This document shows positions 1 to 31,676 of a stretch of DNA of 64,000 nucleotides, piece by piece. Source of the DNA: Elioraea sp. GTDB taxonomy: Bacteria > Pseudomonadota > Alphaproteobacteria > Acetobacterales > Acetobacteraceae. The translations under genes were made by a program, and so were the position numbers. The notes under the pieces were generated by a model. The model was not told where the DNA came from, searched no databases, and saw only the letters and a program-made list of their open reading frames with translations. Location of the stretch: contig NZ_JALHPR010000005.1 in the NCBI RefSeq assembly GCF_022842375.1, positions 134,370 through 198,369 on the forward strand. Direction: 5' to 3'. How positions within the stretch are numbered: position 1 is the first letter of the stretch; every line of letters starts with the position of its first letter.

Positions 1-949
1 GCATGCACTGCGTCTGGTCGATCGCGCCGATCAGCGCGCGGCGGATGGCGGGGTTGTTGAAGGGCGGCTGCAGGTGGTTCACCCGCACCATGCCGACAAA
101 GCCTGTCTGATCGAGCACGCGGACGGTGACGTTGCGCGCACGGCGCAGGACAGAAAGCAGGTCATGGTAGGCGTATTCCTGCCAATCCTGCTCGCCGGCG
201 ATCAGCGCGTTCGTCGCGGTGCCCGTGTCGGGCATCACCTTCCACTCGACCCTGTCGAAATGCACCACCTTCGGCCCCGAGGTCCAGGCCAGCTGCCCGT
301 CGCGCCGCGGCACGTAGCGGTCGAACTTCGTGTAGACGATCTGTGCGCCTGCGATGCGCTCATCCGCCTTGAACCGGAACGGTCCGCTGCCGATGAGCTC
401 GGGCACTTGGCGGAACGGGTCTGTCTCGGCCAGCCGCGCCGGCATCATCGCGCAGACGGGAACCGAGGCTTTGCCGAGCGCGATCGGCAGCAGGGGGAAG
501 GGGCGCTTCAGCCGGAAGCGGATCGTTCGGTCATCGGGGGCGGAGAGTTCGTCCGTCGCGTCCATCAGCGTCTGGCCGAACGGGTCGCGCCGCGCCCAGC
601 GGCGGATGCTCGCCACGCAGTCACGCGCCAGCACACGCTCGCCATCGTGGAACAACAGCCCTTCGCGGAGCGTCAGGTCCCAGCGCCTGCCGTCATCCTC
701 GATGCGGTGGCCGTCGACCATCTGCGGCGTCGCCTGGTAGTTGGCGTCCATGCCGTAGAGCGTGTCGAACACCATGTAGCCGTGGTTGCGCGAGACGTAG
801 GCCGTGGTGGTGACCGGGTCGAGCGTGACGAGGTCCTGCTGCGGCGTGAAGCGCAGCGTCGTCGCCGCCTGGGCGCGCAGGAGCGATGGCCGTGCAACGC
901 TCGCCGCGAGCCCCGCGCCGGCAGCCTGGAAGAGGGTTCGACGTCGCAT
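1..949 (-). CDS. ABC transporter substrate-binding protein, family 5 (peptide/nickel/opine type); 3' end lies outside the window
   Basis: It is absent from the ORF track because it runs off the edge. My minus-strand translation from the ATG (949..947) gives MRRRTLFQAAGAGLAASVARPSLLRAQAATTLRFTPQQDLVTLDPVTTTAYVSRNHGYMVFDTLYGMD..., i.e. an RR (Tat-like) signal plus a family-5 SBP N-terminal pattern. The + ORF 74..1096 is its antisense shadow. Confidence 0.8.
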   Translation of the reverse strand, partial: MRRRTLFQAAGAGLAASVARPSLLRAQAATTLRFTPQQDLVTLDPVTTTAYVSRNHGYMVFDTLYGMDANYQATPQMVDGHRIEDDGRRWDLTLREGLLFHDGERVLARDCVASIRRWARRDPFGQTLMDATDELSAPDDRTIRFRLKRPFPLLPIALGKASVPVCAMMPARLAETDPFRQVPELIGSGPFRFKADERIAGAQIVYTKFDRYVPRRDGQLAWTSGPKVVHFDRVEWKVMPDTGTATNALIAGEQDWQEYAYHDLLSVLRRARNVTVRVLDQTGFVGMVRVNHLQPPFNNPAIRRALIGAIDQTQCM

Positions 950-1085
950 GGGCGGTGCTCCTTAGGGAAGGCGAGGGCGCGCGCCAGCAGATCGCCCCCG
1001 CATCGTTTCGCCGCCAGCATGGGGGACAAATCCGCGCTCGGGCAATCCCCTTTCGGAAACCGTTGCGCGGCCGTGGCGGCGCGGC

Positions 1086-1844
1086 TCAGGGCCTGACGGC
1101 TGGCGTCTCGACGGGCATGCCGGCGGCGCGCGACATCAGGTAGGCCTCGAGCGCGATGGCATCGTGCGAGCCGGGGGCGAAACTCTCCGCCCGCACGCCC
1201 GTCGTGCAGCCGCGCAGCCGCCGTTGGAGCGAACCGAGACCCTGCCACTCCAGGCGGTAGAGCGGATAGCCCGTGGGGTGGCCCTGGGGGATCACGCTGC
1301 CGGCGAGCCGCCGCCCGGCATTGTCGTCATGGCACTGGGCGCAGGAGAGGTTCAGTTGCCCACGCCGCATGCGATAGAGTGCAGCTCCCTCCGCTTGCAG
1401 CAGGGCGATGCGCGGATCATCGGGTGGGGCGATCGGCAGGCCGCGCGACTGGTGCGCCACGAAGGCCGTGAGCGCGAGGCTCGCCTCGCTCTCGCGTGGC
1501 GCCGGGGTCGCCTCCTGGTGGCGGGTCTGGCAGAGGGCGATGCGCCCGGCGAGGTCGACCGCCTCGCCGCGCTCGGCATCGATCGCCGGATAGCGGGCGG
1601 CGACGCCGCGCATCGATGCCGCCGCCTCGCCGTGGCAGTCGGCGCAGGACCGCTCTGTCCGCCCGGCCTTGCGCGACCATCGCCCCTCGCCATCGAGAAC
1701 CCACAGCATGCCCGGGTTGGCTGCATCGTCGGCCTGCATCGCCTGCGTCGCCGCGCTCATGTCGGCGAAGCCAGACCGCCGCTCCTCCGCGCCCGCCGCC
1801 GGCATCGCCGCAAGCAGGAGCGCGGCAAGCACGGCAGCCCTCAT
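1086..1844 (-). CDS. soxA: SoxA-like dihaem cytochrome c
   Basis: These are the last 252 aa of ORF 1086..2231, starting at MRAAVLAALLLAAMPAAGA (signal peptide). It has two CxxCH motifs (CADCH, CAQCH) and an LQRRLRGC region like the Cys-ligand segment of SoxA. Its start overlaps the soxZ stop (ATGA). Confidence 0.8.
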   Translation of the reverse strand: MRAAVLAALLLAAMPAAGAEERRSGFADMSAATQAMQADDAANPGMLWVLDGEGRWSRKAGRTERSCADCHGEAAASMRGVAARYPAIDAERGEAVDLAGRIALCQTRHQEATPAPRESEASLALTAFVAHQSRGLPIAPPDDPRIALLQAEGAALYRMRRGQLNLSCAQCHDDNAGRRLAGSVIPQGHPTGYPLYRLEWQGLGSLQRRLRGCTTGVRAESFAPGSHDAIALEAYLMSRAAGMPVETPAVRP

Positions 1845-2164
1845 GGGGTGACGGTGATGCGGCGCGTCTCCGTCTGCGCGAAGCCGTTGTCGCCTTTCCA
1901 CGTGAAGGTGAGTGTGCCGCTCTCTGTCGCGATCGTGGTGAAGGCGAGATAGGGGTTGGCGGCGATGGCGGGGTGCAACTCGGCGCTGAACACCTCCTCG
2001 CCGTCCCACGCGCAGGCGAAGCGGCGGATGATGTCTCGCGGCAGCACCTCGCCGCTCGAGCCGGGGCGGAAGCCTGTCTCCATCGGGTGCTGGATCAGCG
2101 CGCGAAGCTCGATCACGCTCCCGCGCACGGCGGTGGCCGGCACCTGCAGGATCACGCGCGCCAT
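1841..2164 (-). CDS. soxZ: SoxZ-like sulfur-carrier partner
   Basis: These are the last 107 aa of ORF 1841..3142 (MARVILQVPATAVRGSVIELRALIQHPMETGFR...LTFTWKGDNGF). The gene starts 2 nt after the soxY stop. Confidence 0.85.
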   Translation of the reverse strand: MARVILQVPATAVRGSVIELRALIQHPMETGFRPGSSGEVLPRDIIRRFACAWDGEEVFSAELHPAIAANPYLAFTTIATESGTLTFTWKGDNGFAQTETRRITVTP

Positions 2165-2166
2165 GC

Positions 2167-2613
2167 TCAGCCCTCCACGCAGGCAGCGAGGGTGACGACC
2201 ACCTCGGTGCTCTCCGACCAGAACGAACCATCGCTCATCGCCGCGATCGCGATGATGCGCTGCGACGTCGCGAGCCGCATGCGCGTGGTGATGGCCGCGC
2301 GCCCCGCACGCGGCCCGAGATGGGCGACGATCACCTGCGGCAGGGGGTTGCGCTCGGTGAACACGCCGATGCGCTGCACGTGGTCCTGCGGCGTCATCGG
2401 GCTCTCTACCGTGATGGCGATGGGCACGGTATTGCCGTTCTCGACCAGCGGCGGGATGTCGATCGCCACGCGCCCCTCGCGCAACGTGCCGCCCTCCCCG
2501 AGGAAGGCCGCGATCGCGTCGCGCATCGTCGCCGGCGTGGCCGAGGCCGGGCGCGTGGCGCTGAGCGCGAGGAGGGCAGGGGCGGCGGCCAGCATGGCGC
2601 GGCGTGACGGCAT
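2167..2613 (-). CDS. soxY: SoxY-like sulfur carrier with a non-canonical C-terminal tail
   Basis: 148 aa with a Tat-type signal (MPSRRAMLAAAPALLALSA) and a SoxY-like core (ENGNTVPIAITVESPMT). It has a C-terminal Cys in the tail ...VVVTLAACVEG rather than GGCGG. Confidence 0.8.
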   Translation of the reverse strand: MPSRRAMLAAAPALLALSATRPASATPATMRDAIAAFLGEGGTLREGRVAIDIPPLVENGNTVPIAITVESPMTPQDHVQRIGVFTERNPLPQVIVAHLGPRAGRAAITTRMRLATSQRIIAIAAMSDGSFWSESTEVVVTLAACVEG

Positions 2614-2622
2614 GGGCTGCTC

Positions 2623-3072
2623 CTACTCCTTGAGCGTCACGAGGAAGGCCACCACGTCCTCGACCTCTCCGGCGGTCAGCACCGGCCTGCCGCGCCAGGC
2701 GGCGCCGACGGCGGAAAGCCCCTCGGTGCGGTGATAGGGTGGCATGATCGTGTCCGGGTTCACCCGCGCACTGTCGACGATACGAAGCCGCAACTGTCCC
2801 TCCGAGAGCCTGCTGCCGGCGCCGGCGAGCGAAGGGGCGAGGTTGCCCTGGAACCGCTCCTCCGGGAACGGCCCGGCATGGCAGAGCAGGCAAAGGCCCC
2901 GCTGCCTGTCGGCGACGATGGCACGGCCCCGCGCCGCGTCGCCCGGCCTGCCGGTGAGCGATGCCGCGATCGCGTCGCCGCCGATCATGACAGGCCGTGG
3001 CTCGTCCGCCGCGGCGGGCATCGTGGCCAGCAGCATGGCCACGATGGCGCCACGACGGAGCCCCCCGCTCAC
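2623..3072 (-). CDS. soxX: SoxX-like monohaem cytochrome c
   Basis: The end of ORF 2623..3927 carries a CLLCH haem motif. A GTG at 3072 gives the signal peptide VSGGLRRGAIVAMLLATMPAAA and overlaps the upstream stop (GTGA). The alternative ATG at 3036 would truncate the signal. Confidence 0.7.
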   Translation of the reverse strand: MSGGLRRGAIVAMLLATMPAAADEPRPVMIGGDAIAASLTGRPGDAARGRAIVADRQRGLCLLCHAGPFPEERFQGNLAPSLAGAGSRLSEGQLRLRIVDSARVNPDTIMPPYHRTEGLSAVGAAWRGRPVLTAGEVEDVVAFLVTLKE

Positions 3073-5258
3073 GCGCGCCGAAGGTCCGCGTGCTTGAGCG
3101 GGAGCGAGCGCACCCGCTTGCCCGTGGCGGCGAAGATCGCATTCATCACGGCCGGTGCGGCCACCGCGATCGTCGGCTCGCCGACGCCGCCCCAGAACCC
3201 GCCGGACGTGATGATGATGGATTCCACCGCCGGCATCTCGGCCAGCATCAGTGACGGATAGGTATCGAAGTTCTCCTGCTCGACACGCCCGCCCTTCACC
3301 GTGATCTCCTGGTGCAGCGCCGCGCCCAGGCCATAGACGAACGAGCCCTCGATCTGCGCCTCGATCTGCTGCGGGTTCACCGCATGGCCGCAATCGGTCG
3401 CAGCCACGATGCGGTGGATCGAGAGCTTGCCGTCGTTCGAGACCGAAACCTCGGCGCAGGCAGCGACGTAGCTGCCGAAGCCGTGCGTCTGGGCAAGGCC
3501 GCGGAAGCGCCCGGCAGGCGCGGGCGTTCCCCAGCCGATGCGCTCCGCCACCGCGTTCAGCACCGCCAGATGCTTCGGATGGTTGGTCATGAGCGCGCGG
3601 CGGAAGGCGAGCGGGTCCTTCCCGGCCGCGTGGGCCAGTTCGTCGATGAAGCACTCGAGGTAGATCGCGTTCTGGTTCAGGTTCACCCCGCGCCAGAACC
3701 CTGGCGGAACCGATGGGTTCCGCATCGCGTGGTCGATCAGCAGGTTCGGGATCGTGTAGCCTATATCGGCTTCGCCGCCGCTGGCGTTCAGCCCCTGGAA
3801 CACGACCGGGTCGCGCCCGTCGCGGATGTTCTGCGGGAAGGTGCCAGCGACGATCGACTGCCCCGAGATGCGCATGGTGAGGCCGACGAGGTTGCCCTGC
3901 GCATCGAGCCCGCCGACGAGCTTGCACTGCGTCACCGGGTGGAACCTGCCCTGCAGCATGTCCTCCTCGCGCGACCAGATCATCTTGATCGGCGTTCCCG
4001 GCATCTGCTTGGCGATCAGCACCACCTGGGTCACCCAGTCATGCACGGCGCCGCGCCGGCCGAAGCCGCCGCCGAGGTGGATCTTGTGCACGTCGCACTG
4101 GGTCGCCGGAAGGCCTGATGCCGCCGCGGTTGCCGCGAGCGCCGCCTCGCCGTTCTGCGTCGGCGTCCACACCTCGCAGCGATCGGCCGTCCAGAGGGCC
4201 GTGGCGTTCATCACCTCCATGCACGCATGGTTCTGGTGCGGATACGCGTAGACAGCCTCGATCCGCTTCGCCGCACCCGTGATCGCTGCGCGCGCATCGC
4301 CCGCACGGTTGCCGACGACAGCCTCCGGCGCATCGAGCCCTTCCTTGAGCCAGGCAGCGACGGCCTCTGAGGAGGCGTTCGCGTTCGGCCCCTCGTCCCA
4401 CACGATCGGCAGCGCATCGAGCGCCTTCTTCGCCCGCCACCAGGTATCGGCCACGACCGCGACCGCGTTGTCGCCCACCGGGACGACGCGCTTGACGCCC
4501 GGCATCCCTTGCACGGCCGCGGCGTCGAAGCTCCTCACCTTGCCGCCGAAGATGGGGCAGGCCCGCACGGCGGCGTTGAGCATGCCCGGCAGGGTGAGGT
4601 CCATGCCGTAGACCTGCGAGCCGTTCGTCTTCTCGACCGTGTCGAGGCGCGCGACCGACTTGCCCGCGATCTTCCACGCGCGTGGATCCTTCAGCGGAAC
4701 GTTCTCCGGCGGCGTCAGCCTGCCGGCCGCCTCGGCAACGCGGCCATAGGTGGTCGTCCGCCCCGTCGGGGTGTGGGTGATCACGCTGTTCGCGGCCGAG
4801 CATTCAGCCGCCGGAACGTTCCACGCCGTGGCGGCTGCCTGGACGAGCATCATCCGCGCCGCCGCACCGCCCTTGCGCACGTAGTCCTGGCTTTCGCGGA
4901 TGCCGCGGCTGCCGCCGGTGGAGAAGTTCCCCCAGACGCGGCGTCGGGCGAGGTTCTGCCCCGGCGTCGGATACTCCGTCGTCACCTTCGCCCAGTCGCA
5001 CTCGAGCTCCTCGGCCACGAGCTGCGCCAGCCCGGTGAGCGTTCCCTGCCCCATCTCCGACCGGGCGATGCGGATCACAACGGTGTCGTCGGGCCTGATC
5101 ACCACCCAGGCATTGACCTCCGGCGGGATTGCGGGTGCGGCGCCCTGCGCGACGGCGCTGCGCGTCAGCGGCACGTGGAAGCCGAGGGTGAAGGCGCCGG
5201 CAGCAGCCGTGGCTGTGGCCATCAGGCCGCGGCGGGAGAGTGTGCTCTCTGTCGTCAT
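3069..5258 (-). CDS. Molybdopterin-binding large subunit of an IorB/aldehyde-oxidase-type (xanthine dehydrogenase family) oxidoreductase, Tat-exported
   Basis: 729 aa from MTTESTLSRRGLMATATAAAGAFTLG (Tat signal) within ORF 3069..5786. Typical segments include EMGQGTLTGLAQLVAEELE, HLGGGFGRR and GGVGEPTIAVAAPAVMNAIFAATG. The 176 aa upstream of this start are Arg-rich artefact. Confidence 0.85.
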   Translation of the reverse strand: MTTESTLSRRGLMATATAAAGAFTLGFHVPLTRSAVAQGAAPAIPPEVNAWVVIRPDDTVVIRIARSEMGQGTLTGLAQLVAEELECDWAKVTTEYPTPGQNLARRRVWGNFSTGGSRGIRESQDYVRKGGAAARMMLVQAAATAWNVPAAECSAANSVITHTPTGRTTTYGRVAEAAGRLTPPENVPLKDPRAWKIAGKSVARLDTVEKTNGSQVYGMDLTLPGMLNAAVRACPIFGGKVRSFDAAAVQGMPGVKRVVPVGDNAVAVVADTWWRAKKALDALPIVWDEGPNANASSEAVAAWLKEGLDAPEAVVGNRAGDARAAITGAAKRIEAVYAYPHQNHACMEVMNATALWTADRCEVWTPTQNGEAALAATAAASGLPATQCDVHKIHLGGGFGRRGAVHDWVTQVVLIAKQMPGTPIKMIWSREEDMLQGRFHPVTQCKLVGGLDAQGNLVGLTMRISGQSIVAGTFPQNIRDGRDPVVFQGLNASGGEADIGYTIPNLLIDHAMRNPSVPPGFWRGVNLNQNAIYLECFIDELAHAAGKDPLAFRRALMTNHPKHLAVLNAVAERIGWGTPAPAGRFRGLAQTHGFGSYVAACAEVSVSNDGKLSIHRIVAATDCGHAVNPQQIEAQIEGSFVYGLGAALHQEITVKGGRVEQENFDTYPSLMLAEMPAVESIIITSGGFWGGVGEPTIAVAAPAVMNAIFAATGKRVRSLPLKHADLRRA

Positions 5259-5272
5259 GTGCCCGTTCCCCC

Positions 5273-5743
5273 TCAACCGCTCGTCGCCGGGCCGCCCTCG
5301 GCGGCCCGCTTGATGCCCGCGAGCACCCGGTTGTAGGTGCCGCAGCGGCAGATGTTGGTGATCTCGGCGCGGATCTGGTCCTCGGTCGGCTTCGGCGTCT
5401 GCGCGAGCAGCGCGGCCGCGGCCATCAGCATGCCCGACTGGCAGAAGCCGCATTGCGGCACGTCGAGCTCGACCCACGCCTTCTGCAGCGGATGCTGCGT
5501 CCCCGCGGGCGCGAGGCCCTCGATCGTCACGATTTTCTGCGCCTCGGTGAAGGCGGAGACGGGCGTCGCGCATGAGCGCACGGCCACGCCGTCGACATGC
5601 ACGGTGCAGGCGCCACAGGCGGCGACGCCGCAGCCATACTTCGTTCCGGTCAGCCCGATCTGCTCGCGCAGCACCCAGAGGAGCGGCGTGTCGTCCTCGA
5701 CCGCCACGTCGATCGTTCGTCCATTGACGTTCAGCTTGGCCAT
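5273..5743 (-). CDS. [2Fe-2S]-binding small subunit (IorA/CoxS type)
   Basis: 156 aa from [13 protein letters not shown]. Cys clusters [11 protein letters not shown] and CGFCQSGM...CRCGTY are typical of the two [2Fe-2S] sites. It lies 14 nt upstream of the large subunit. Confidence 0.9.
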
Positions 5744-5965
5744 GTCGCTCCCCGTTCGTTGGGCCTTGGGTCGTAGCCCCCGGCACGTCCCTTCGCTCCC
5801 AGCGGCCTTGGGCCGTCTTGGCAGGGGCGCAACCGGTTGGTGCAGCCAGCCTACGCTATACGCCGGGAGAGGCAATCCCAGAGGGCAATGCGCGCCTCAT
5901 GATGTTGTGACCGGCTTCGTGCGATGCTGCGCTGCGCTGCCGCAGCCCGAGGAAGCGGCCGTCGC

Positions 5966-6892
5966 ATGACCGGAGTGATGCCACCGATGACCATGGCCAG
6001 CCTGCCGGACGAAGCCGTCCACCTGCCTTTCGATGACGGACCGTTCCGCATGGCGATGGGCCTCGTCGCCTGTCCCGAGGATGACTGGCTCGAGATCGAC
6101 GCTCGCTACCATGAGGAGATGGCAGAGCGTCGCGACCTGCTGGCCGCGCGCCATGCCGAGGTCTTTGCTGCCTGCCCGGGCTCTGAGCCGGCGCGCGTGG
6201 AGGTGCTGGAAGTTGTCGCCGCGCATCTTGTGCGGCGATACCCCGCCTGGTTCATGCGTGAGTGCGACACGCTGCATAACGCGTTGACGGGCGAGACGTG
6301 GACGCTCACGGCCCCGCACTGCGATCCGCTCGCGCTCGCTGGCCTGCTGGTGCAGGAGGATCTATGCCTCATCCGCCCTGGCGCGGACGCGGCCGTGCTC
6401 GAAGCAGCGGTGGTGTGCGCGCCGAGCCGCTGGCGGCTTGCGGAGAAGATCGGTCGACCGTTGATGGCGGTTCACGCACCGGTGCCGTTCTACGGAGACA
6501 GGCTCGGCAGCCCGGTCGATCGCTTCATGCGGCAGCTGAAGCCCGGGCGGATCGCTGTCAGGATGAACTGGTCGATCGTCGATGATCCTGCGCTGTTCCA
6601 GCCACATGCTCCATCGCGCCACGAGGCCTGCTCACCGATCACTTCGAGCAATGCCGGCGAAACACTGCATTTCCGCATGGAACGGCAAGGGTTCCGCCTG
6701 ATGGAGCGATCAGGCTCGGTGCTGTTCACCATCCGCGTCCACAGCTATCCGCTGGCCCGTGTCGTTCGTCTCCCCGGCGTCGCGGCGCGGCTCGCCGGGG
6801 CGGTGCGAGCACTGCCGCCCGAGATGTCCGCATACAAGGCCCTCGTGCCGTTCCTCGATCCGCTGCACGCCTATCTCGCGGCGGTGGCGTGA
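5966..6892 (+). CDS. DUF3445 family protein (haem-dependent oxidative N-demethylase alpha-subunit-like)
   Basis: ORF 5924..6892. The sequence (DDWLEID..YHEEMAERRDLL.., QEDLCLI, VCAPSRWRLAEKIG) matches my memory of DUF3445. The start is uncertain: in-frame ATGs lie at 5924, 5966, 5978, 5987 and 5993, and 5966 has GAGGAAG 10 nt upstream. Confidence 0.7.
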   Translation: MTGVMPPMTMASLPDEAVHLPFDDGPFRMAMGLVACPEDDWLEIDARYHEEMAERRDLLAARHAEVFAACPGSEPARVEVLEVVAAHLVRRYPAWFMRECDTLHNALTGETWTLTAPHCDPLALAGLLVQEDLCLIRPGADAAVLEAAVVCAPSRWRLAEKIGRPLMAVHAPVPFYGDRLGSPVDRFMRQLKPGRIAVRMNWSIVDDPALFQPHAPSRHEACSPITSSNAGETLHFRMERQGFRLMERSGSVLFTIRVHSYPLARVVRLPGVAARLAGAVRALPPEMSAYKALVPFLDPLHAYLAAVA

Positions 6893-8535
6893 TGCGGCGG
6901 ATGGCGAAGCGGCCCGATATCCTCGTCGGTGCCGCGATCGGCCTTGGCATGACGGCGCGCGCGGCGGCCGACGGGGGTGCGGATTTTGTTCTCGCGCTCA
7001 ACGCCGGCCGGTTCCGCGTGATGGGTGCGCCCTCGCTCGCCGCGATGCTGCCGATCAGCGACAGCAACGCCTTCACTGACGGCTTCGCCCGATCCGAGAT
7101 CCTCGACCGCGTGGCCATCCCCGTCTTCTTCGGTGCGGCGGCGTGCGACCCGCGCGTGGATGTCATGGCCCTCGTCACGCGAATCCGGCGTATCGGCTAT
7201 CGCGGCATCGCCAACTTCCCGACCGCCATCCATCATGACGGGCCGTTCCGCGCGGCGCTGGAGGCAGCCGGCCTCGGCTTCGCGCGCGAGGTCGAGATGC
7301 TTCGCGCGGCGCGCGGAATCGGGCTCGCCACGCTCGGCTATGCCAAGACGCGCGCGGAGGTCGATGCCCTGCTCGATGCCGGCGTCGAGCATCTCTGCCT
7401 GAACTTCGGCTGGAACGCCGGCGGCAGCATGGGCGTTCCGGGCGGCGTTCCGCTCGATGATGCGGCCGAGCGTGCGCGGCGGATCTTCGCCCATGTGCGA
7501 CGTATCGCACGCGGCACGCTCTGCCTGGTCGAGGGCGGGCCGATCGTCGATCCGACGCACATGATCCGCGTGTGCGATGCCTCGCGCGCCGATGGCTATG
7601 TCGGCGGCTCGACGCTCGATCGCCTGCCGCTCGAGATGTCGGTGATGCAGACCACCTCGGCCTTCAAGACCGCGCGGCTGTTGCGTGACGACCGCGCCGG
7701 CGGGGAGCAGCGGATTGTGGGGCTGCTTGGCGGGTCGCAGGCAGCGCGGACGCTCGCCGAACGGATCGCGAGGCTCGTCGCGACCGACCTGCCGATCGTC
7801 ATCGAAGGCGAGGCCGGTGCCGGCCGCACCTCCGCGGCGCGGGCGATCCATGCCACGAGCCGCCGTGGTGGCAGTGTCGGGTTCATCGATGCGCGCGAGG
7901 ACATCACGGGGGCATTGTTTGGCGAGCGGGGCCGAAACATGCTGGGTGCGGCGCAGAACACGGTTGTCATCGAGCATGCCGATGCGCTGGCGCCGACGCT
8001 TCGCGCACGGCTCGCGGAATGGATCGAGCGCGGCACGTTCGATCGTTTCGCCCGGCCAGACGAACGGCGGCCACGCGCGCGCCTGCTGTTGACGCACCCA
8101 CCTGGCGGCGAGGCGCTCGCCCGCGCCCTCTCGGCACAGCGCCTTGCCGTTCCGCCGCTGCGCGAGCGGATGGAAGACCTTCCAGTCATTGCCCGCGCGA
8201 TGCTGGGTGCAACGGGAAGGCCTGTGCCGGCCCTTCAGCCCGCCGCGCTCAGGCTGCTGATGGCACAACGCTGGCCCGGCAACCTGCGCGAACTGCAGCA
8301 CGCCCTGGCACGCGCGGCGCTCGAGGCCCGTGACGGGCGGATCGATGCCGTGGTGATCGAGCGCGTGCTCGGCCCCGCCCAGGTTGGCGCTGTCACGGAA
8401 GCGATGGATGAGCGTGCCTGGATTCTTGATGCGCTGCGTCGGCATCGTTTCCGACGTGGCGAGACGGCAGCGTTCCTCGGCATCGCTCGGAAGACGCTCT
8501 ACAACCGGATGCGGCGGCTTGGCCTCGACAACTGA
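6892..8535 (+). CDS. Transcriptional regulator: PEP-hydrolase-like TIM-barrel sensor domain + degenerate sigma-54-interaction (AAA+) domain + Fis-type HTH
   Basis: The N-terminus (ILVGAAIGLGMTARAAADGGADFVLALNAGRFRVMG...GIANFPTAIHHDG) is homologous to CDS 15206..16036. The centre has GEAGAGRT, VVIEHAD and WPGNLRELQH. The C-terminus has an HTH (ETAAFLGIARKTLYNRMRRLG). Its ATG overlaps the DUF3445 stop (GTGATG). Confidence 0.8.
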   Translation: MRRMAKRPDILVGAAIGLGMTARAAADGGADFVLALNAGRFRVMGAPSLAAMLPISDSNAFTDGFARSEILDRVAIPVFFGAAACDPRVDVMALVTRIRRIGYRGIANFPTAIHHDGPFRAALEAAGLGFAREVEMLRAARGIGLATLGYAKTRAEVDALLDAGVEHLCLNFGWNAGGSMGVPGGVPLDDAAERARRIFAHVRRIARGTLCLVEGGPIVDPTHMIRVCDASRADGYVGGSTLDRLPLEMSVMQTTSAFKTARLLRDDRAGGEQRIVGLLGGSQAARTLAERIARLVATDLPIVIEGEAGAGRTSAARAIHATSRRGGSVGFIDAREDITGALFGERGRNMLGAAQNTVVIEHADALAPTLRARLAEWIERGTFDRFARPDERRPRARLLLTHPPGGEALARALSAQRLAVPPLRERMEDLPVIARAMLGATGRPVPALQPAALRLLMAQRWPGNLRELQHALARAALEARDGRIDAVVIERVLGPAQVGAVTEAMDERAWILDALRRHRFRRGETAAFLGIARKTLYNRMRRLGLDN

Positions 8536-9119
8536 GAGTCTGCCGCATCGCGCCAGGCGAATGGCTCTCCTCCTTCGATCAGCACGTGGCTTGCCTGCTC
8601 TGGCCATGGCCGCGCCGGGCCCTCCCCGAGGCCGGGGTGGAGCAGGATCCGCCGCAGCCCGAGCGATAGCGCGATCGTTGCCGCATCGTCCGAGACGGCG
8701 CAGGCGATCGGCGCCATTCCATGCTCGGCGAAACGCAGCAGCATGCGGAACTCGGCTTCCGCGCGCATGCCAACCGAGGCCAGCGCCGCTGACGTCTCGG
8801 GACCGAAGAACTGGATCGTCGGGAAGTTCACCACCTCGGTAATGCCAGCTTCTGCCAACGCCGCCGCGACATCAGCGACGCGGAGGAAGGGGTCGCTTGC
8901 GAACACGCCCGCCACGGGTGCGCCCGCCCGCAGCCGGGCCCGCCCACGGCAGGCGGCAAGCAGGGCGCCGTTGATGTCGAGCACGGGCAGCAGCGCGACG
9001 AGGGGCCACCGCGCCGGCGGAAACTGCGCGAGCGCCGGCAGGAACACCCCGTCGCGCCGACGCTCGGGCCTGACACCGGCGAGGGAGGCGAGGGGATGCA
9101 GGGTTCGCACCATACCCAA
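8499..9119 (-). CDS. Short PEP-hydrolase-like (TIM-barrel signal-transduction family) paralogue
   Basis: 206 aa. PVAGVFASDPFLRVADVAAALAEAGITEVVNFPTIQFFGPETSAALASVGMRAEAEFRMLLRFAEHG...ILLHPGLG aligns by eye with [12 protein letters not shown]...[36 protein letters not shown]...ILVPHLGLT of CDS 15206..16036. The start is TTG at 9119 or ATG at 9113. The last 37 nt overlap the convergent regulator gene. Confidence 0.55.
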   Translation of the reverse strand: MGMVRTLHPLASLAGVRPERRRDGVFLPALAQFPPARWPLVALLPVLDINGALLAACRGRARLRAGAPVAGVFASDPFLRVADVAAALAEAGITEVVNFPTIQFFGPETSAALASVGMRAEAEFRMLLRFAEHGMAPIACAVSDDAATIALSLGLRRILLHPGLGEGPARPWPEQASHVLIEGGEPFAWRDAADSQLSRPSRRIRL

Positions 9120-9160
9120 TATTACCCGTTAATGACGCGCAATCCACCTTGCGACGAGCA

Positions 9161-9174
9161 TGCCTGATCAGGCA
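9161..9174. promoter_or_regulatory. Perfect 14-bp palindrome TGCCTGATCAGGCA in the divergent promoter region
   Basis: Read directly from the sequence. It lies between the short paralogue (start 9113/9119, minus) and the first permease gene (9242, plus), and is a candidate operator. Confidence 0.3.
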
Positions 9175-9241
9175 CACCCATGGTGGGAGCGGCCAGCCGA
9201 ACAGATGCGGCCGAGGGAGACACAAGGGAGACGGGCCGGGG

Positions 9242-10117
9242 ATGGACCTCGCCGCGACCATCGTGCTGAACGGGCTCACGCTCGCTGCGCTTTATTTCAT
9301 CGTCGCGAGCGGCTTCTCGCTGATCTTCGGCCTCATGCGCGTGGTGAACATGGCGCATGGTACGCTCTATCTGGTTGCCGGCTATGTCGGCTACCGCGTC
9401 TTCGAGCCGCTCTATGACGCTGACGTCTGGTGGGCATGGTATGCCGGGCTCGCGGCCGGCATTGTCGCGGCGGCGGTGGCCGGCGCCCTGTTGCAATGGG
9501 TGCTGCTGTCGTGGATGCAGGGCCAGGAACTGCGCCAGGCACTCGTCACGATCGGCGTCTCGATCATCGTGGCTGACCAGGTGCTGGCGATCTTCGGCGG
9601 CACGCCGCGGCAGTTCTTTGCCCCAGACGCGATCTTCGGTTCGACGCGCGTTCCCTTCGTCGGCGGCTACCCGACCTTCCGCCTCGTGCAGATCGGCATC
9701 GCGATCGCCGTCGGGATTGCGCTTTGGCTCGTCCTCAATCGCACGCGCCTCGGCATGATGATCCGCGCCGGTGTCGATGACCGCGAGATGCTCGGCGCCT
9801 GCGGGGTGAACGTGCCGCGCGTCGGCATCGCGGTGTTCGCGCTGGGCGCGGCGCTCTGCGGCCTCGGCGGCGTGATCGGCTCGACGGCACAGCCGCTCGC
9901 GCTTGGCCAGGACGGACGCTTCCTGCTCATCTCGCTCGTCGTCGTCATCGTCGGCGGCATGGGCTCGATCACCGGCACGGCGATCGGCGCGATCCTCGTC
10001 GGCCTTGCCGAGCAGATCGGCCAGGCGATGTTTCCGACCTACTCCGTCATCCTCACCTTCGTGATCATGGTGGCGGTGCTCGCGCTCCGGCCGCAGGGGA
10101 TCCTCGGCCGTGCGTAG
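9242..10117 (+). CDS. Branched-chain-amino-acid-type (LivH-like) ABC permease
   Basis: 291 aa from MDLAATIVLNGLTLAALYFIVASGFSLIFGLMRVVNMAHG, with AGGGAG upstream. It is the in-frame part of ORF 9149..10117. Confidence 0.85.
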   Translation: MDLAATIVLNGLTLAALYFIVASGFSLIFGLMRVVNMAHGTLYLVAGYVGYRVFEPLYDADVWWAWYAGLAAGIVAAAVAGALLQWVLLSWMQGQELRQALVTIGVSIIVADQVLAIFGGTPRQFFAPDAIFGSTRVPFVGGYPTFRLVQIGIAIAVGIALWLVLNRTRLGMMIRAGVDDREMLGACGVNVPRVGIAVFALGAALCGLGGVIGSTAQPLALGQDGRFLLISLVVVIVGGMGSITGTAIGAILVGLAEQIGQAMFPTYSVILTFVIMVAVLALRPQGILGRA

Positions 10118-11108
10118 CGCTGCCTTCCGCGCGATCGGTGCGCTGCTGCTCGTCGCAGCTCCCTTCCTGCTGCTCGTCGTGCTGCCGCAGAACCAGGCGC
10201 TGTTCTGGACGGCCAACGTGCTTGGCAGGGCGATCGTGTTCGGCATCATCGCGCTGTCGCTGAGCTTCCTCGCCACCTATGGCGGGTTCATCTCGCTCGC
10301 GCAGATGATGGTGGCGGGCTCGGCCGGCTACGCAGTCGCGATCCTGGTCGATGGTGCGGTGCCGACGATCGTGGGCGGCGTTCCCTATGCACTCGCGATG
10401 CCGATCGCGCTCGTCGTCGCCACGCTGATGGGGCTTCTCGTCGGCGCCGTGGCCGTACGCACGCGCGACATCTACCTGCTCATGATCACGCTCGCGGTGG
10501 CGATGGGCGTGTTCCGCTTCGTCGAGACCAACATTGCTTGGTTCAACGGCTACGAGGGCATCCGCAATGTCGTGGGGCCGCAGCTGTTCGGCACGGATTT
10601 CCGGAATCCGTACGTATTCTATTACGTCTCGCTCGTGGTCGCCGCGCTGCTCTATGGCGGCGTCCTCTACCTCGTGCGGACACCGTTCGGGCTCGTGCTC
10701 CAGGGCATCCGCGACAATGACAGGCGTGTCGCTGCACTCGGCTACTCGGTGAAGCTTCACCGCATCGCCGCGTTCGGCGTCGCCGGCTTCATCGCAGGCG
10801 CTGGCGGGGTGCTGGCAACGATCTACAACATCGGCATCTCACCCGGCACCATCGGGCTTGGGCCGACGGTGAACGTGCTGATCATGAGCGTGATCGGCGG
10901 GCTCGGCCATCCAGCCGGCGCCTTCATCGGCTCGCTGATCTTCACTGTGTTCGACACCTTCGCGGCCAACATCTACGACCGCGACCGCTTCAATACGCTG
11001 ATCGGCCTCGTGTTCCTGGTGATCGTGCTCGTCTCTCCCGACGGCATGGTCGGTCTTGGCACGCGGCTCCGCAGCCTGCTCGGGGCACGCCGTGCGCCAC
11101 AGCCCTGA
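10110..11108 (+). CDS. LivM-like ABC permease
   Basis: 332 aa, multi-TM, with typical ..SLSFLATYGGFISLAQ.. and ..RVAALGYSVKLHRIAAF.. segments. The GTG start overlaps the upstream stop by 8 nt. Confidence 0.85.
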   Translation: MRSAAFRAIGALLLVAAPFLLLVVLPQNQALFWTANVLGRAIVFGIIALSLSFLATYGGFISLAQMMVAGSAGYAVAILVDGAVPTIVGGVPYALAMPIALVVATLMGLLVGAVAVRTRDIYLLMITLAVAMGVFRFVETNIAWFNGYEGIRNVVGPQLFGTDFRNPYVFYYVSLVVAALLYGGVLYLVRTPFGLVLQGIRDNDRRVAALGYSVKLHRIAAFGVAGFIAGAGGVLATIYNIGISPGTIGLGPTVNVLIMSVIGGLGHPAGAFIGSLIFTVFDTFAANIYDRDRFNTLIGLVFLVIVLVSPDGMVGLGTRLRSLLGARRAPQP

Positions 11109-11177
11109 GGAGCGAGGCCCCCGGCACGGTGCCGGACGCGCCACCAACGAAAATCAACACAAAACAGGAGGAACATC

Positions 11178-12461
11178 ATGACGACGACACTCACGCGCCG
11201 GCGCGCCCTGCTCGGCACGGCAGGCATTGCAGCGGGGCTGGCAACGCCGCTTGCGGCCCCCGCGATCGCACAAGGAGCGCCCATCCGGCTCGGCGGGTTG
11301 ACCACGCTCGAAGGCCCCTTCGCAACGGGTGGCCAGGATGCCTTCCGCACCGTTCAAATGGAATTGGAGCGGATCAACTACACGGTCGGCGGCCGCAGGA
11401 TCGAGTTCATCCGCGAGAGCTCGAACGCACAGGCCGATGTCGCGCTGGCGCGTGCACGCAAGCTGATCGAGCAGGATAACGCCGACATCATCCTCGGGCC
11501 CCTCTCGGGTGCAGAGGGCATTGCGCTGCGCGACTATTCGCGCACGCTTACCGGGCGGACGATCGTCAATGGCAGTTCCGGGGCGTCCGACACGACGCTG
11601 CGCAACCCTTCGCCGAACTTCTTCCGCTTCTCCACCGATGGTACCCAGTGGATGGCCGGTCTCGGCCGTTACGTGTACGAGACGCTCGGCGTGCGCGAGG
11701 TCGCGGTGACCGCCGGTGACTACGCCTTTCCGTACGCTCAGGTGTTCGGCTTCAACATCGAGTTCTGCCGGCTCGGCGGCCGAGTCACGCAATACTGGGC
11801 GCCGCTCGGCACGACGGATTTCGGCGCGCAGATCGCACAGATCAACCGCTCCAGCGCCGGCGCGCTCGTAATCGTGCATGGCGGAACCGACGGGCTCGCC
11901 TTCATGACGCAGTATGCCCAGGCGGGCGGGCAGAAGCCGCTCATCGCCGGCTCGATCATGGCTGACCAGACGATGCTCGCCGCACGCGGCCCGCATCGGC
12001 GCGTGATGGTCGGCATGGTCTCCGGCGGCCCGATCGCGGATGTGATCGACGATCCCGATTGGCGCGAGTTCGTCGAGCGCTACCGCCGCCGTTGGCTGAA
12101 CGAGGGCGGGTTCCCGTCACCCTCGATCCACGCGGTCAACTACGCCACGAACCTCTGGGGCATCCTGAAGGCGCTGGAGGCCGTCCGCGGCGATCTTTCG
12201 AACAACCAGCAGGCGTTCCAGCGCGCGCTCGCCGCCGCCGAGTTCAAGGCGCCCACGGGCGCAAACGTGAAGCTTGACCACAATCGCCAGGCCATCTCCG
12301 ACATCTTCCTCAATCGCGTCGAGGAGCGGGACGGTCGTGCGCAGGTGGTGGCCTTCGCCCGGGCCAATGCGGTGAACCAGACCCTCGGCCTGCCTGAGGC
12401 ACAGTTCCTCGCCCTCGGCGCGCCCTCGCGCGACAATGCGGGCTGCGTGCGCCCATCCTGA
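11178..12461 (+). CDS. Periplasmic substrate-binding protein, Leu/Ile/Val (type I PBP, amide/urea-like) family, Tat signal
   Basis: 427 aa with MTTTLTRRRALLGTAGIAAGLATPLAAPAIAQG and an AGGAGG RBS. IRLGGLTTLEGPFA..DIILGPLSGAEG is typical of the family. Confidence 0.85.
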   Translation: MTTTLTRRRALLGTAGIAAGLATPLAAPAIAQGAPIRLGGLTTLEGPFATGGQDAFRTVQMELERINYTVGGRRIEFIRESSNAQADVALARARKLIEQDNADIILGPLSGAEGIALRDYSRTLTGRTIVNGSSGASDTTLRNPSPNFFRFSTDGTQWMAGLGRYVYETLGVREVAVTAGDYAFPYAQVFGFNIEFCRLGGRVTQYWAPLGTTDFGAQIAQINRSSAGALVIVHGGTDGLAFMTQYAQAGGQKPLIAGSIMADQTMLAARGPHRRVMVGMVSGGPIADVIDDPDWREFVERYRRRWLNEGGFPSPSIHAVNYATNLWGILKALEAVRGDLSNNQQAFQRALAAAEFKAPTGANVKLDHNRQAISDIFLNRVEERDGRAQVVAFARANAVNQTLGLPEAQFLALGAPSRDNAGCVRPS

Positions 12462-26381: not shown

Positions 26382-28751
<2,370 letters not shown>

Positions 28752-29824: not shown

Positions 29825-30208
29825 CTACTTGATCGCGATTGCAGCCGCGGCGGCGGGCGCGAGTTCGGCGGTTGGCGCGATCGTTCCGTGGTTGGCCAGC
29901 ATGTACGCGCTGATCGCCCACTTGTCCTCGTCGCTGAGCTTCGTCGGGTCGTCGAAGGGCATCATCATCTGGTTGTATTCGAACAGGCCCATCGCGTTCT
30001 CGAAGCGCGCGATCTTCGCTCCCTGGCCCCAGATCGGTGTCTGATAGCCCGCACCCGCGCGGCCATCGTCGCCATGGCAGGCAGCGCAGTAATCGGCGAA
30101 CAGCCGCGCACCATGGCCGACCTGTTGGCTGCGCGGCGCATCGGCCGATGCGAGGGAGACGAAGGCGACAGTGACGCCGGCGAGAGCGGCAAATACAAGC
30201 GAACGCAT
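29825..30208 (-). CDS. sorB: Monohaem cytochrome c, SorB-like
   Basis: 127 aa with a signal peptide (MRSLVFAALAGVTVAFVSLASA) and a CAACH motif. It lies immediately downstream of the sulfite-oxidase-family gene. Confidence 0.7.
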   Translation of the reverse strand: MRSLVFAALAGVTVAFVSLASADAPRSQQVGHGARLFADYCAACHGDDGRAGAGYQTPIWGQGAKIARFENAMGLFEYNQMMMPFDDPTKLSDEDKWAISAYMLANHGTIAPTAELAPAAAAAIAIK

Positions 30209-30248
30209 CGTGGCAGCATGCTCCGGGTTGGTTCAGCGGGAGGGAGCG

Positions 30249-30274
30249 GCCGGCCCCCGAACGCAGGGGCCGGC
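30249..30274 (-). other. Intercistronic hairpin between sorA and sorB
   Basis: GCCGGCCCC-(8 nt)-GGGGCCGGC forms a perfect 9-bp stem. Confidence 0.3.
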
Positions 30275-30293
30275 ACCTGGAGGCAGGGTCGTC

Positions 30294-31676
30294 TCAGACC
30301 ACCTCGACCCTGAATTTCGGGATGGCCCAGTTCGCCATGCCGAGCGTGTTGAGCGGCACCTTCTCCGGCTGCTGCGTCCCGGCAGTGTCGGTCGCGCGCG
30401 TCTCGATCACGTGCTGGCCCGCCGTCGCGTTCCACGGCACGTCGAACCTGACCCAGGTGTACTTGCCGAGATTGGGAGGCCTGATCGCCGCCTGCTGCCA
30501 GGCGCCGCCGTCGATCCGCACCTCGACGTTCCGCACGCCGTGCTGCGGCGCCCAGGCATAGCCGCGCAGCGTCTGCTGCCCGGCCGAGAGGCGCGGGACC
30601 TGGCCACGCTGCAGCGGGTAGTTCGCCGGCACCGACGGCGACTTCTCGAGCACAAGCGGCACGGTGATGAAGGATTTCGGCGGCATCCAGGTGACCATGG
30701 GCCCCTTGATGTCGTCCGCCGTCACGCCGATGAACTCGTCATCGGCGCTGAACTCGGGCCGCGCGTAGCTGGGCCCGATATAGACCTCGCCTCGCGTGTT
30801 CAGCCGCGCCCAGACGCGCTTGTCGGTGACGCGGATCTCGGTGAGCCACTTGATCGAGGCGGTGCCGCCCCAGCCGGGCACGACCATGCGCACCGGTGCG
30901 CCGTGATCGGGGATCAGCGGGTTGCCGTTCATCGCGAAGCAGACGCCCATGTCGTGCTGCAGCGAAGCGACGTCGCTGTAGGGCATCGGCCTGCCCATGT
31001 CATTGCCGTCGACGCCCGACCAGAACAGCACCGTGCGTGCGCCTGGCTTGATACCGACGCGGGCGAAGATCTCGCTCATCGGGACGTACTGCCACTCGGC
31101 CTGGCCGACGGCACCGAGCACCCAGTTGCCGCCGGCAACCTCCTGCCCGGTCAGCCCGTCCTGCTCCCAGAACAGCGTGCGCCCGTTGCCGTGGCATTCC
31201 ATCGTCGCGATGATCGTGCGCGACGGCATGGCGAGCAGGTCGTTGTACGAAAGGTCGACCGGCCGCTCGACGGAGGTGCCGTGGATGCGCAGCTTCCAGT
31301 TCTCGCGCGCAAGCACGGGGCGCTGTTCGACCGTCGGTGTCGGGTAGTGGTTGCGGACGTAGAATTCCTCAACCGGCGTCATGAACGTTTTGAAGTTCCA
31401 GTAATTGCCGGAACGAACCGTCGCGCCGATGTTCAAGACGCGGCTGTCGTCCTTCAGGATCGCCCTCCGCGGGGCTGGCGCCGGCTGCGCCGGTGCCTGT
31501 GCCGGTGCCTGTGCCGGGGCCTGCGCCAGGGCCTGGGTCGACCCGGTCCCGATCGCCGCCGCCGCCCCGAACGCCGCCGCCGAGACGAACAGCGATCGCC
31601 GCTGCGTGTTGGTGCCGTCCTTCAGGACGGTCTGGGCGATCTGGTCCGCTTCCGCACGCTGTTTTCGTTCCGACAT
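30294..31676 (-). CDS. sorA: Sulfite dehydrogenase, molybdopterin subunit (sulfite oxidase family, SorA-like), Tat-exported
   Basis: 460 aa with a Tat signal (TQRRSLFVSAAAFGAAAA), Mo-ligand region ATMECHGNGR, SIKWLTEIRV, and a C-terminal dimerisation-type domain. GGGGAGGA RBS. Confidence 0.8.
   Translation of the reverse strand: MSERKQRAEADQIAQTVLKDGTNTQRRSLFVSAAAFGAAAAIGTGSTQALAQAPAQAPAQAPAQPAPAPRRAILKDDSRVLNIGATVRSGNYWNFKTFMTPVEEFYVRNHYPTPTVEQRPVLARENWKLRIHGTSVERPVDLSYNDLLAMPSRTIIATMECHGNGRTLFWEQDGLTGQEVAGGNWVLGAVGQAEWQYVPMSEIFARVGIKPGARTVLFWSGVDGNDMGRPMPYSDVASLQHDMGVCFAMNGNPLIPDHGAPVRMVVPGWGGTASIKWLTEIRVTDKRVWARLNTRGEVYIGPSYARPEFSADDEFIGVTADDIKGPMVTWMPPKSFITVPLVLEKSPSVPANYPLQRGQVPRLSAGQQTLRGYAWAPQHGVRNVEVRIDGGAWQQAAIRPPNLGKYTWVRFDVPWNATAGQHVIETRATDTAGTQQPEKVPLNTLGMANWAIPKFRVEVV
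31477..31536 (-). repeat. Imperfect 12-bp tandem repeat inside sorA encoding (AQAP)n
   Basis: GCCGGTGCCTGT x2 is exact (31489..31512), flanked by degenerate copies. It translates to ALAQAPAQAPAQAPAQPAPAP just after the Tat signal. Confidence 0.6.

Follow-up and report, generated by a model that had tools for sequence, protein, structure and literature searches.

The 64-kb window analysed here, by which we mean the whole stretch of 64,000 nucleotides at positions 134,370 to 198,369 of contig NZ_JALHPR010000005.1 from the alphaproteobacterium Elioraea sp. (G+C content ~70%), carries six open reading frames (ORFs) arranged head to tail on the minus strand between positions 1086 and 5743, in the order iorA, iorB, soxX, soxY, soxZ and soxA. 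They place a periplasmic molybdenum hydroxylase of the IorAB type directly in front of a set of Sox-related proteins. The arrangement is not unique to the window; the module turns up again in bacterial genomes and metagenome contigs that together number well over a hundred. All coordinates were checked against the minus-strand sequence of the window, and the genes, motifs and junctions of the six-gene set described below lie on that strand.

The first two genes encode the hydroxylase. The IorA-like small subunit (156 amino acids (aa), 5273..5743) matches Pfam Fer2_2 (1.3e-26) and Fer2 in translation, lacks a signal peptide and contains eight cysteines in CGxxxCGxC...C and CGFC...CRC patterns, the motifs of two [2Fe-2S] clusters; its orthologues in related loci are 59-87% identical. 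The IorB-like molybdopterin-binding large subunit (729 aa, 3069..5258) matches Pfam MoCoBD_1 and MoCoBD_2, scores far below every NCBIfam equivalog cut-off, and has as its closest solved relative 8gy3_C, the 'Large subunit of aldehyde dehydrogenase' (E=8.5e-76 over the full length). Its N-terminus is a twin-arginine translocation (Tat) signal (MTTESTLSRRGLMATATAAAGAF, with the motif SRRGLM; codons of R9 and R10 at 5229..5234) that aligns to the LSRRNFLM N-terminus of 8gy3_C, and an RRx-hydrophobic motif lies within the first 40 residues of 61 of the 74 related IorB proteins as called. The GGGFGRR motif, the Gln of VWTPTQ and the Glu of GVGEPT are kept in at least 95% of 65 orthologues, and we take this Gln to be the Mo-site Gln and this Glu to be the catalytic Glu by analogy with bovine xanthine oxidase (XO; Q767 and E1261). 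With these motifs conserved, the enzyme looks catalytically competent. The module's conserved neighbours include no FAD-subunit (CO_deh_flav) gene, and IorAB is, by its domain composition, a two-subunit, FAD-less architecture of the XO family.

The four genes that follow belong to Sox families, and all four products are 37-40% identical to their Paracoccus counterparts. SoxX (149 aa, 2623..3072) is a monohaem cytochrome c (CLLCH) with a Sec-type signal that scores 78.8 bits against NCBIfam TIGR04485 (cut-off 61) and is 37.5% identical to Paracoccus SoxX; its CxxCH motif and IMPxY region are kept in at least 90% of 79 sequences. SoxA (252 aa, 1086..1844) is a dihaem cytochrome c (CADCH and CAQCH), likewise with a Sec-type signal, scoring 211 bits against TIGR04484 (cut-off 110) and 3.3e-39 against Pfam SoxA-TsdA_cyt-c. 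Both of its CxxCH motifs are kept in at least 90% of 76 sequences, and so is the Cys of an LRGC motif, the aligned counterpart of the FVGC Cys in Paracoccus SoxA. SoxZ (107 aa, 1841..2164) matches Pfam SoxZ (2.8e-26) and TIGR04490 (79.8 bits, cut-off 76); it has no signal peptide and is presumably exported bound to SoxY. That the two cytochromes are generic Ior or aldehyde-dehydrogenase subunits, a result that would have counted against the first-pass annotation, is not borne out, both SoxX and SoxA exceeding their NCBIfam equivalog cut-offs.

The carrier protein (148 aa, 2167..2613, with the Tat-type N-terminus MPSRRAML) is where the set departs from canonical Sox. It reaches 196 bits against TIGR04487, the 'SoxY-related AACIE arm protein' model (cut-off 172), and fails the true-SoxY model TIGR04488 (96.9 bits, cut-off 125), whereas Paracoccus SoxY, used as a control, behaves reciprocally (150 bits against the cut-off of 125, and 102 against 172). 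The protein is 38% identical to Paracoccus SoxY and ends in ...VTLAACVEG rather than GGCGG, the arm codons L-A-A-C-V-E-G occupying 2170..2190 and the codon of Cys145 2179..2181. Residues T141, L142, A144, C145 and E147 are invariant in 21 diverse homologues, and the arm motif x-A-C-[VILTFA]-E, followed by 0-5 trailing residues, is present in all but one of 82 loci, the exception having D for E. An arm that is invariant within the clade and unlike GGCGG implies different partner enzymes. SoxZ adjoins this type of SoxY in 83 of 86 sources, and both proteins are retained in 82-83 of the 86. By these model scores the window protein is a member of the AACIE-arm SoxY family and not a canonical carrier, and the window Sox set as a whole is, on sequence divergence, a distinct paralogous lineage. 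The first-pass annotation, which had been right about iorAB according to the domain searches, had read the downstream genes as soxXYZA lacking soxB and soxCD; its SoxX, SoxZ and SoxA assignments stand, each passing a Sox equivalog model, while its soxY is an AACIE-arm paralogue and the canonical status falls with the low identity and the A-A-C-[VILT]-E arm in place of GGCGG.

The six genes are tightly packed. Fourteen nucleotides (5259..5272) separate the iorA stop from the iorB start, the TGA stop of iorB overlaps the GTG start of soxX within GTGA (3069..3072), the soxX/soxY and soxY/soxZ gaps measure 9 and 2 nt, and the soxZ stop overlaps the soxA start within ATGA (1841..1844). The 14-nt spacing and both overlaps had been noted in the first-pass annotation and agree with the sequence, as do the flanks noted there, namely a gene for a peptide-type solute-binding protein (SBP_bac_5) downstream of soxA and a divergent HODM_asu-like (DUF3445) gene upstream of iorA. 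From the ORF layout, the 222-nt intergenic region between iorA and the divergent gene (5744..5965) is the presumed promoter region of the operon. Within-module gaps are tiny or negative in all related loci, whose gene starts come from a simple GC3-based caller so that the gap statistics are approximate: the median IorA-IorB gap is 12 nt, the 4-nt IorB-to-SoxX overlap occurs in 4 of the 13 such junctions as called, and SoxZ-SoxA junctions most often overlap by 4 nt (39 of 73 loci). We favour the GTG at 3072 as the soxX start over the alternative ATG at 3036, without certainty; translation from the GTG yields a signal peptide with a charged n-region (MSGGLRRGAIVAMLLATMPAAA), translation from the ATG yields none, and independent gene calls in two relatives (L001 and L002) likewise use a soxX start overlapping iorB by 4 nt. 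Taken together, the spacing suggests a single operon of six genes. Every ORF is intact, and the ratio of nonsynonymous to synonymous substitution rates (dN/dS) against four relatives lies between 0.09 and 0.5 for every gene, values that are probably inflated because synonymous sites are saturated and GC-biased.

The linkage between the hydroxylase and the Sox paralogues was followed in both directions. In a scan anchored on the carrier and limited to one genome per species, at least 587 genomes encode an AACIE-type SoxY; the 80 best loci were taken, of which 67 extend 5 kb or more upstream of SoxY. In 64 of these 67 species-level genomes, an IorB orthologue (identity 58% or higher) is encoded upstream of the AACIE SoxY and on its strand. 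Conversely, a metagenome scan anchored on IorB gave 80 contigs with IorB 67-78% identical to that of the window, and SoxX, SoxY, SoxZ and SoxA lie downstream of IorB in 35 of the 39 contigs that extend at least 3 kb in that direction. The same order in both data sets is far beyond what chance would produce. Altogether 167 related loci were collected, 87 derived from genomes and 80 from metagenomes. The alphaproteobacterial hosts comprise Microvirga, Bradyrhizobium, Xanthobacteraceae, Pseudolabrys, Methylobacterium, Roseomonas, Belnapia, Falsiroseomonas, Enterovirga and Inquilinus; the others are Betaproteobacteria (Burkholderiales, Rubrivivax) and two metagenome-assembled genomes (MAGs) of Rokubacteria, and the module is also found on large plasmids or chromids. 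The earlier suspicion that the Mo enzyme and the Sox proteins cooperate is thus strongly backed by synteny that is conserved in both directions across Alphaproteobacteria, Betaproteobacteria and the two Rokubacteria MAGs.

Protein clustering of the window together with 85 loci returned eight recurrent families only: SoxZ, SoxY, SoxX, SoxA, IorB, IorA, an FCSD-type flavoprotein and a small CxxCH cytochrome. Genes beyond these eight are generic and differ between lineages, and the accessory candidates (a Bug-type binding protein, ABC transporter parts, an extradiol dioxygenase, a FAH-family protein and AMP-binding enzymes) were rejected as module parts, being lineage-specific. Since the flanks differ between lineages, the module appears self-contained. 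A neighbour-joining tree of 161 IorB sequences contains 130 Sox-linked members and 7 labelled as stand-alone, which resolve into four genuine singletons, two members of a multi-IorAB locus (L131) and one distant paralogue (L035). The four singletons are metagenome contigs (L125, L147, L148 and L164) whose IorAB are 68-72% identical to the window IorB, and the 3-7 kb downstream of these pairs contain neither a sox nor a cytochrome gene. A separate Sox-independent IorAB clade was considered and rejected, these four and their near-duplicates being scattered inside the Sox-linked clade.

The module exists in two forms. Of the 67 genome loci, 55 have the long form, in which iorB and soxX are separated by genes for a small cytochrome c and for an FCSD flavoprotein with a Tat signal and a CPPGPYE motif, together a SoxE/SoxF-like pair; in the short form, seen in 12 loci and in the window, soxX follows iorB directly. 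Neither the FCSD protein nor the small cytochrome has a match anywhere in the 64-kb window, and in some short forms the pair comes after soxA. Short and long forms interleave in the IorB tree, and the nearest relatives of the window include both (L001 and L002 short, L016 and L038 long). The parts of the module stay together while their order is not fixed. Two MAGs of Burkholderiales or other Betaproteobacteria (L076 and L080) have the order IorB-SoxY-SoxZ-SoxX-SoxA, the cytochrome-FCSD pair precedes IorAB in L062, and it follows SoxA in L093, L099 and L112, as in Starkeya. In Methylobacterium platani and M. terricola (L049 and L056), SoxA has no match downstream of soxZ; there, an IorA-like gene (41% identity) and two ORFs of ~337 and ~745 aa behind it together look like a three-subunit (FeS, FAD and Mo) enzyme of the XO family; the Methylobacterium plasmid pNMS14P1 (L086) keeps SoxA. 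Many Xanthobacteraceae-type modules (L011, L028, L034, L043, L047, L048, L052, L068 and L131) carry one or two extra tandem IorAB pairs, one ~66-71% and one ~49-52% identical to the window IorB, and in the two Burkholderiales loci L005 and L009 an IorAB pair of 34-35% identity directly follows soxA. The Mo-enzyme half of the module is prone to being duplicated.

SoxB and SoxCD, which complete canonical Sox pathways, are missing from this neighbourhood, as had been proposed. Paracoccus SoxB has no tblastn match in the window, in the 87 genome-derived loci or in the 80 metagenome loci. The window operon contains no SoxCD, and Paracoccus SoxC and SoxD queries match only one pair of window genes, at 29825..31676 on the minus strand and 24 kb from the sox paralogues. 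This pair encodes a sulfite-oxidase-family Mo protein (460 aa, Oxidored_molyb and Mo-co_dimer) followed by a 127-aa monohaem cytochrome c, and is flanked by a LysR regulator (28906-29811) and a sigma-54 response regulator (31834-33204). The Mo protein is 28% identical to Paracoccus SoxC and scores under the SorT, SoxC and SorA NCBIfam cut-offs; the pair looks SorAB-like or like a 'paralogous SoxCD'. The only SoxCD relative seen beside a module is on the metagenome contig L102, where genes for SoxC-like (42%) and SoxD-like (49%) proteins sit ahead of the iorA of a long-form module, in the opposite orientation.

A consensus scan of positions 800..6200 found no promoter-like site, including at the iorB-soxX junction, and a single terminator-like hairpin, at 2230-2247 inside soxY, that is not above shuffle level. 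An internal promoter or terminator at the iorB-soxX junction, a feature that would have spoken against a single transcript, is therefore rejected. The 5744..5965 region upstream of iorA contains no sigma-70-like consensus, sigma-54 motif, FNR motif or Rfam match, and a riboswitch or other RNA element there is likewise rejected, no credible Rfam match occurring in 1-12000. No tRNA is present in the window. Nor is there a regulatory motif shared upstream of iorA among 140 loci, none of which has a sigma-54 site and 3 of which have an FNR box. The word TTGATTTGAA (an 8-10-mer) occurs in the 250 nt upstream of iorA in ~12 of these 140 loci, not including the window, and could be a lineage-specific operator or -35 region. 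No RNA-seq data cover the window: the sequencing runs that contain its sequence are DNA metagenomes from drinking water and wastewater. Further along, the plus strand encodes at 6892-8535 a regulator combining an N-terminal PEP_hydrolase-like TIM barrel, a sigma-54 activator AAA+ domain and a Fis-type helix-turn-helix; a convergent 204-aa ORF with a partial PEP_hydrolase-like domain (8499-9113, minus strand) overlaps its 3' end. We do not link this activator to the operon, there being no sigma-54 promoter motif upstream of iorA. Elsewhere in the window, a gene at 26382-28589 on the minus strand encodes a 735-aa two-domain, KatG-like haem peroxidase (Pfam peroxidase in two stretches), and a beta-lactamase-family gene (25201-26274) adjoins it.

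Taking together the gene identities, the periplasmic targeting signals, the intact catalytic motifs, the tight packing and the two-way linkage, we propose, with a probability of about 0.4, that the six genes encode a self-contained periplasmic module for carrier-based oxidation of sulfur or organosulfur compounds, in which IorAB processes an adduct bound to SoxY. In this scheme SoxXA, with its three c-type haems and the aligned SoxA Cys, would oxidatively attach a sulfur nucleophile to Cys145 in the AACVE arm of SoxY; Tat-exported IorAB (Mo and 2x[2Fe-2S]) would insert water-derived oxygen into the carrier-bound adduct, taking the place of SoxCD and possibly also of SoxB; and electrons would pass from the IorAB FeS clusters to the Sox haems and on to the respiratory chain. 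All components carry export signals or can hitch-hike on them. IorAB is the only module-encoded candidate to process or unload the carrier, because the module has no SoxB, SoxCD or hydrolase and the short form consists of IorAB and Sox proteins only. The remodelled but invariant arm (x-A-C-x-E with a variable tail) fits changed partner enzymes, and the presence of a cytochrome gene always after iorB is consistent with electrons leaving via the [2Fe-2S] clusters to c-type haems. The two roles suggested in the first-pass annotation, SoxXA as electron acceptor of the Mo enzyme and replacement of SoxCD, are not mutually exclusive. Thiosulfate is an unlikely physiological substrate in view of the Starkeya and Bradyrhizobium data (PMC3797975, PMC5748708).

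Several points weigh against this proposal. The link between IorAB and SoxY is read from sequence, and co-transcription from gene spacing. XO-family enzymes hydroxylate carbon centres or oxidise CO, and we know of none that acts on a protein-tethered or sulfur substrate. The few IorAB pairs that lack any neighbouring sox or cytochrome gene (L125, L147, L148 and L164) imply that the enzyme may work on a free substrate. The module encodes no product-releasing hydrolase, and, the SoxB search having covered the window and the 167 loci, a canonical SoxB encoded elsewhere in the genome may serve in trans. The broader claim that IorAB is the first XO-family molybdoenzyme with a protein-tethered substrate, forming with SoxXA a complete and widespread non-thiosulfate pathway independent of SoxB and SoxCD in soil, rhizosphere and freshwater Proteobacteria, is one that we consider somewhat doubtful.

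The stand-alone pairs fit better with a division of labour in which IorAB hydroxylates a free organosulfur or other small molecule (for instance a thio-substituted heterocycle, a thioaldehyde or a different C-S compound), releasing reduced sulfur into the periplasm. This sulfur would then be captured and oxidised by the Sox paralogues, together with FCSD and cytochrome c in the modules that have them; pathway and regulator would be shared without any protein-bound intermediate. IorB keeps the standard hydroxylase residues, its nearest solved relative acts on free aldehydes, and an FCSD-type sulfide dehydrogenase is present in 55 of 67 modules. Such an arrangement would also explain the silence on thiosulfate (PMC3797975). 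It leaves unexplained, however, how the carrier is unloaded without SoxB and why its arm is remodelled and invariant, and no transporter, hydrolase or carbon-skeleton catabolic gene is conserved beside the module, so that we hold it to be unlikely. If instead IorAB were an ordinary periplasmic dehydrogenase of aldehydes or N-heterocycles, SoxX and SoxA could act simply as its dedicated cytochrome partner, as in three-component enzymes of the IorAB or aldehyde dehydrogenase (ALDH) type. FAD-less IorAB-type enzymes such as the 8gy3 complex use cytochrome c acceptors, and a cytochrome gene always comes directly after iorB (soxX in the short form, the small cytochrome c in the long form), often with a 4-nt overlap. 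An electron acceptor would have no need of SoxY and SoxZ, yet 82-83 of 86 sources keep both, purifying selection acts on them and the Cys arm is invariant; SoxA retains the aligned LRGC Cys typical of a sulfur-coupling enzyme, and it is FCSD and not IorB that the small cytochrome accompanies in L062 and L055. We regard this explanation as decidedly improbable.

The Sox paralogues might also serve the hydroxylase itself. Enzymes of the XO family depend on a cyanolysable Mo=S ligand, which they readily lose, and a SoxY persulfide built by the Sox proteins could re-sulfurate this labile ligand in the exported enzyme within the periplasm. The specificity of the linkage to one IorB clade would suit such a role, as would the lack of a conserved XdhC/PaoD-like maturation gene in the module. 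Four to six genes, including a three-haem oxidising complex, would nevertheless be a heavy cost for repair; cofactor maintenance by Sox proteins is without precedent to our knowledge, and no helpers of this kind are reported for the other periplasmic XO-family enzymes compared, making the idea very improbable. Least credible of all is that the genes are a redundant or decaying duplicate of canonical Sox beside an unrelated Mo enzyme. The second Starkeya cluster was barely expressed under all tested conditions, and its authors considered that it might lack functional significance (PMC3797975). Against decay stand the six intact ORFs with dN/dS of 0.09-0.5, a gene order kept across classes while the flanks change, the two-way linkage, and a carrier arm that is both distinct and invariant.

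Sox paralogues apart from the main sox cluster are counted in thousands and treated as unexplained duplicates (PMC13500833); at least one large class of them is here the fixed partner of a specific periplasmic Mo hydroxylase, turning a vague "second sox cluster" into a defined and testable module. Should the Mo enzyme indeed act on a carrier-bound intermediate, this would be new chemistry for the xanthine oxidase family and a new branch of bacterial sulfur or organosulfur oxidation, in hosts abundant in soil, on plants and in water (Bradyrhizobium, Xanthobacteraceae, Methylobacterium, Microvirga, Roseomonas and Burkholderiales). Even with a free substrate, the module would mark one that joins carbon hydroxylation to sulfur handling.

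Clusters of this type are already named in databases and drawn in one paper (PMC3797975). Three findings are new here: the module is self-contained, it is coupled tightly, in both directions and across classes to one IorB clade, and no copy has SoxB around it. The searchable literature contains no report of any of the three. Nor did literature searches return a functional study of the AACIE or SoxY-related family, or of sox genes with isoquinoline 1-oxidoreductase. A 2026 survey counts ~1000-1300 paralogues of soxA, soxX, soxY and soxZ outside sox clusters, assigning no function and mentioning no Mo enzyme (PMC13500833). The closest description is the 'second sox gene cluster' of Starkeya novella (2013), soxX2Y2Z2A2F2 (Snov_1982-1977) with the XO-family enzyme Snov_1975/1976, for which SoxAX and SoxYZ were undetected, transcripts were very low on glucose, methanol or thiosulfate, and the authors left the function open while raising a possible lack of functional significance (PMC3797975). 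Both clusters are alphaproteobacterial and combine soxXYZA, without soxB or soxCD, with an XO-family Mo enzyme; in Starkeya the Mo enzyme comes after soxF2, whereas in the window it precedes soxX and the FCSD-cytochrome (SoxF-like) pair is missing. Likened by description only, the window cluster matches the Starkeya one save for the gene order and the missing SoxF pair. In Bradyrhizobium diazoefficiens, a passage of PMC5748708 citing Masuda 2010 gives soxY1 as essential for thiosulfate oxidation and soxY2 as dispensable; the parallel with soxY2 is again one of description.

Compared with the canonical system (SoxXA, SoxYZ, SoxB, SoxCD and SoxEF; comparison locus Paracoccus sp. SMMA_5, L087), the module has the homologous X-Y-Z-A order, an entirely periplasmic setting, the haem motifs and the aligned SoxA Cys, and in its long form a cytochrome c and FCSD flavoprotein analogous to SoxE and SoxF. 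It differs in its 37-40% identity, in an AAC[VIL]E arm where the canonical carrier has GGCGG, in having an XO-family Mo hydroxylase in place of SoxB and SoxCD, and in lacking SoxRS and SoxVW accessory genes. On this gene content the window system, which possesses SoxXA but not the GGCGG arm, SoxB or SoxCD, is not a member of canonical Sox. A SoxYZ-type Cys carrier associated with a non-Sox periplasmic dehydrogenase has a precedent in the quinoprotein dehydrogenase-associated SoxYZ-like carrier (TIGR04557), which differs in being a fused SoxYZ that accompanies pyrroloquinoline quinone (PQQ) enzymes, while the window module has genuine SoxXA; the window SoxY and SoxZ match that model weakly (60.5 and 40.2 bits), far under its cut-off of 140. 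With the IorAB or membrane-bound aldehyde dehydrogenase type (8gy3; KEGG 'isoquinoline 1-oxidoreductase') the module shares the small subunit with two [2Fe-2S] clusters, the Tat-signal molybdenum-cofactor large subunit, the absence of an FAD subunit and a c-type cytochrome gene immediately downstream. That cytochrome is here SoxX, accompanied by SoxA, and not a dedicated membrane cytochrome subunit, and the IorB clade of the window is nearly always tied to SoxYZ carriers. By analogy, the loading half of the system thus appears to work in the manner of Sox, and its Mo half in that of an IorAB/ALDH-type dehydrogenase.

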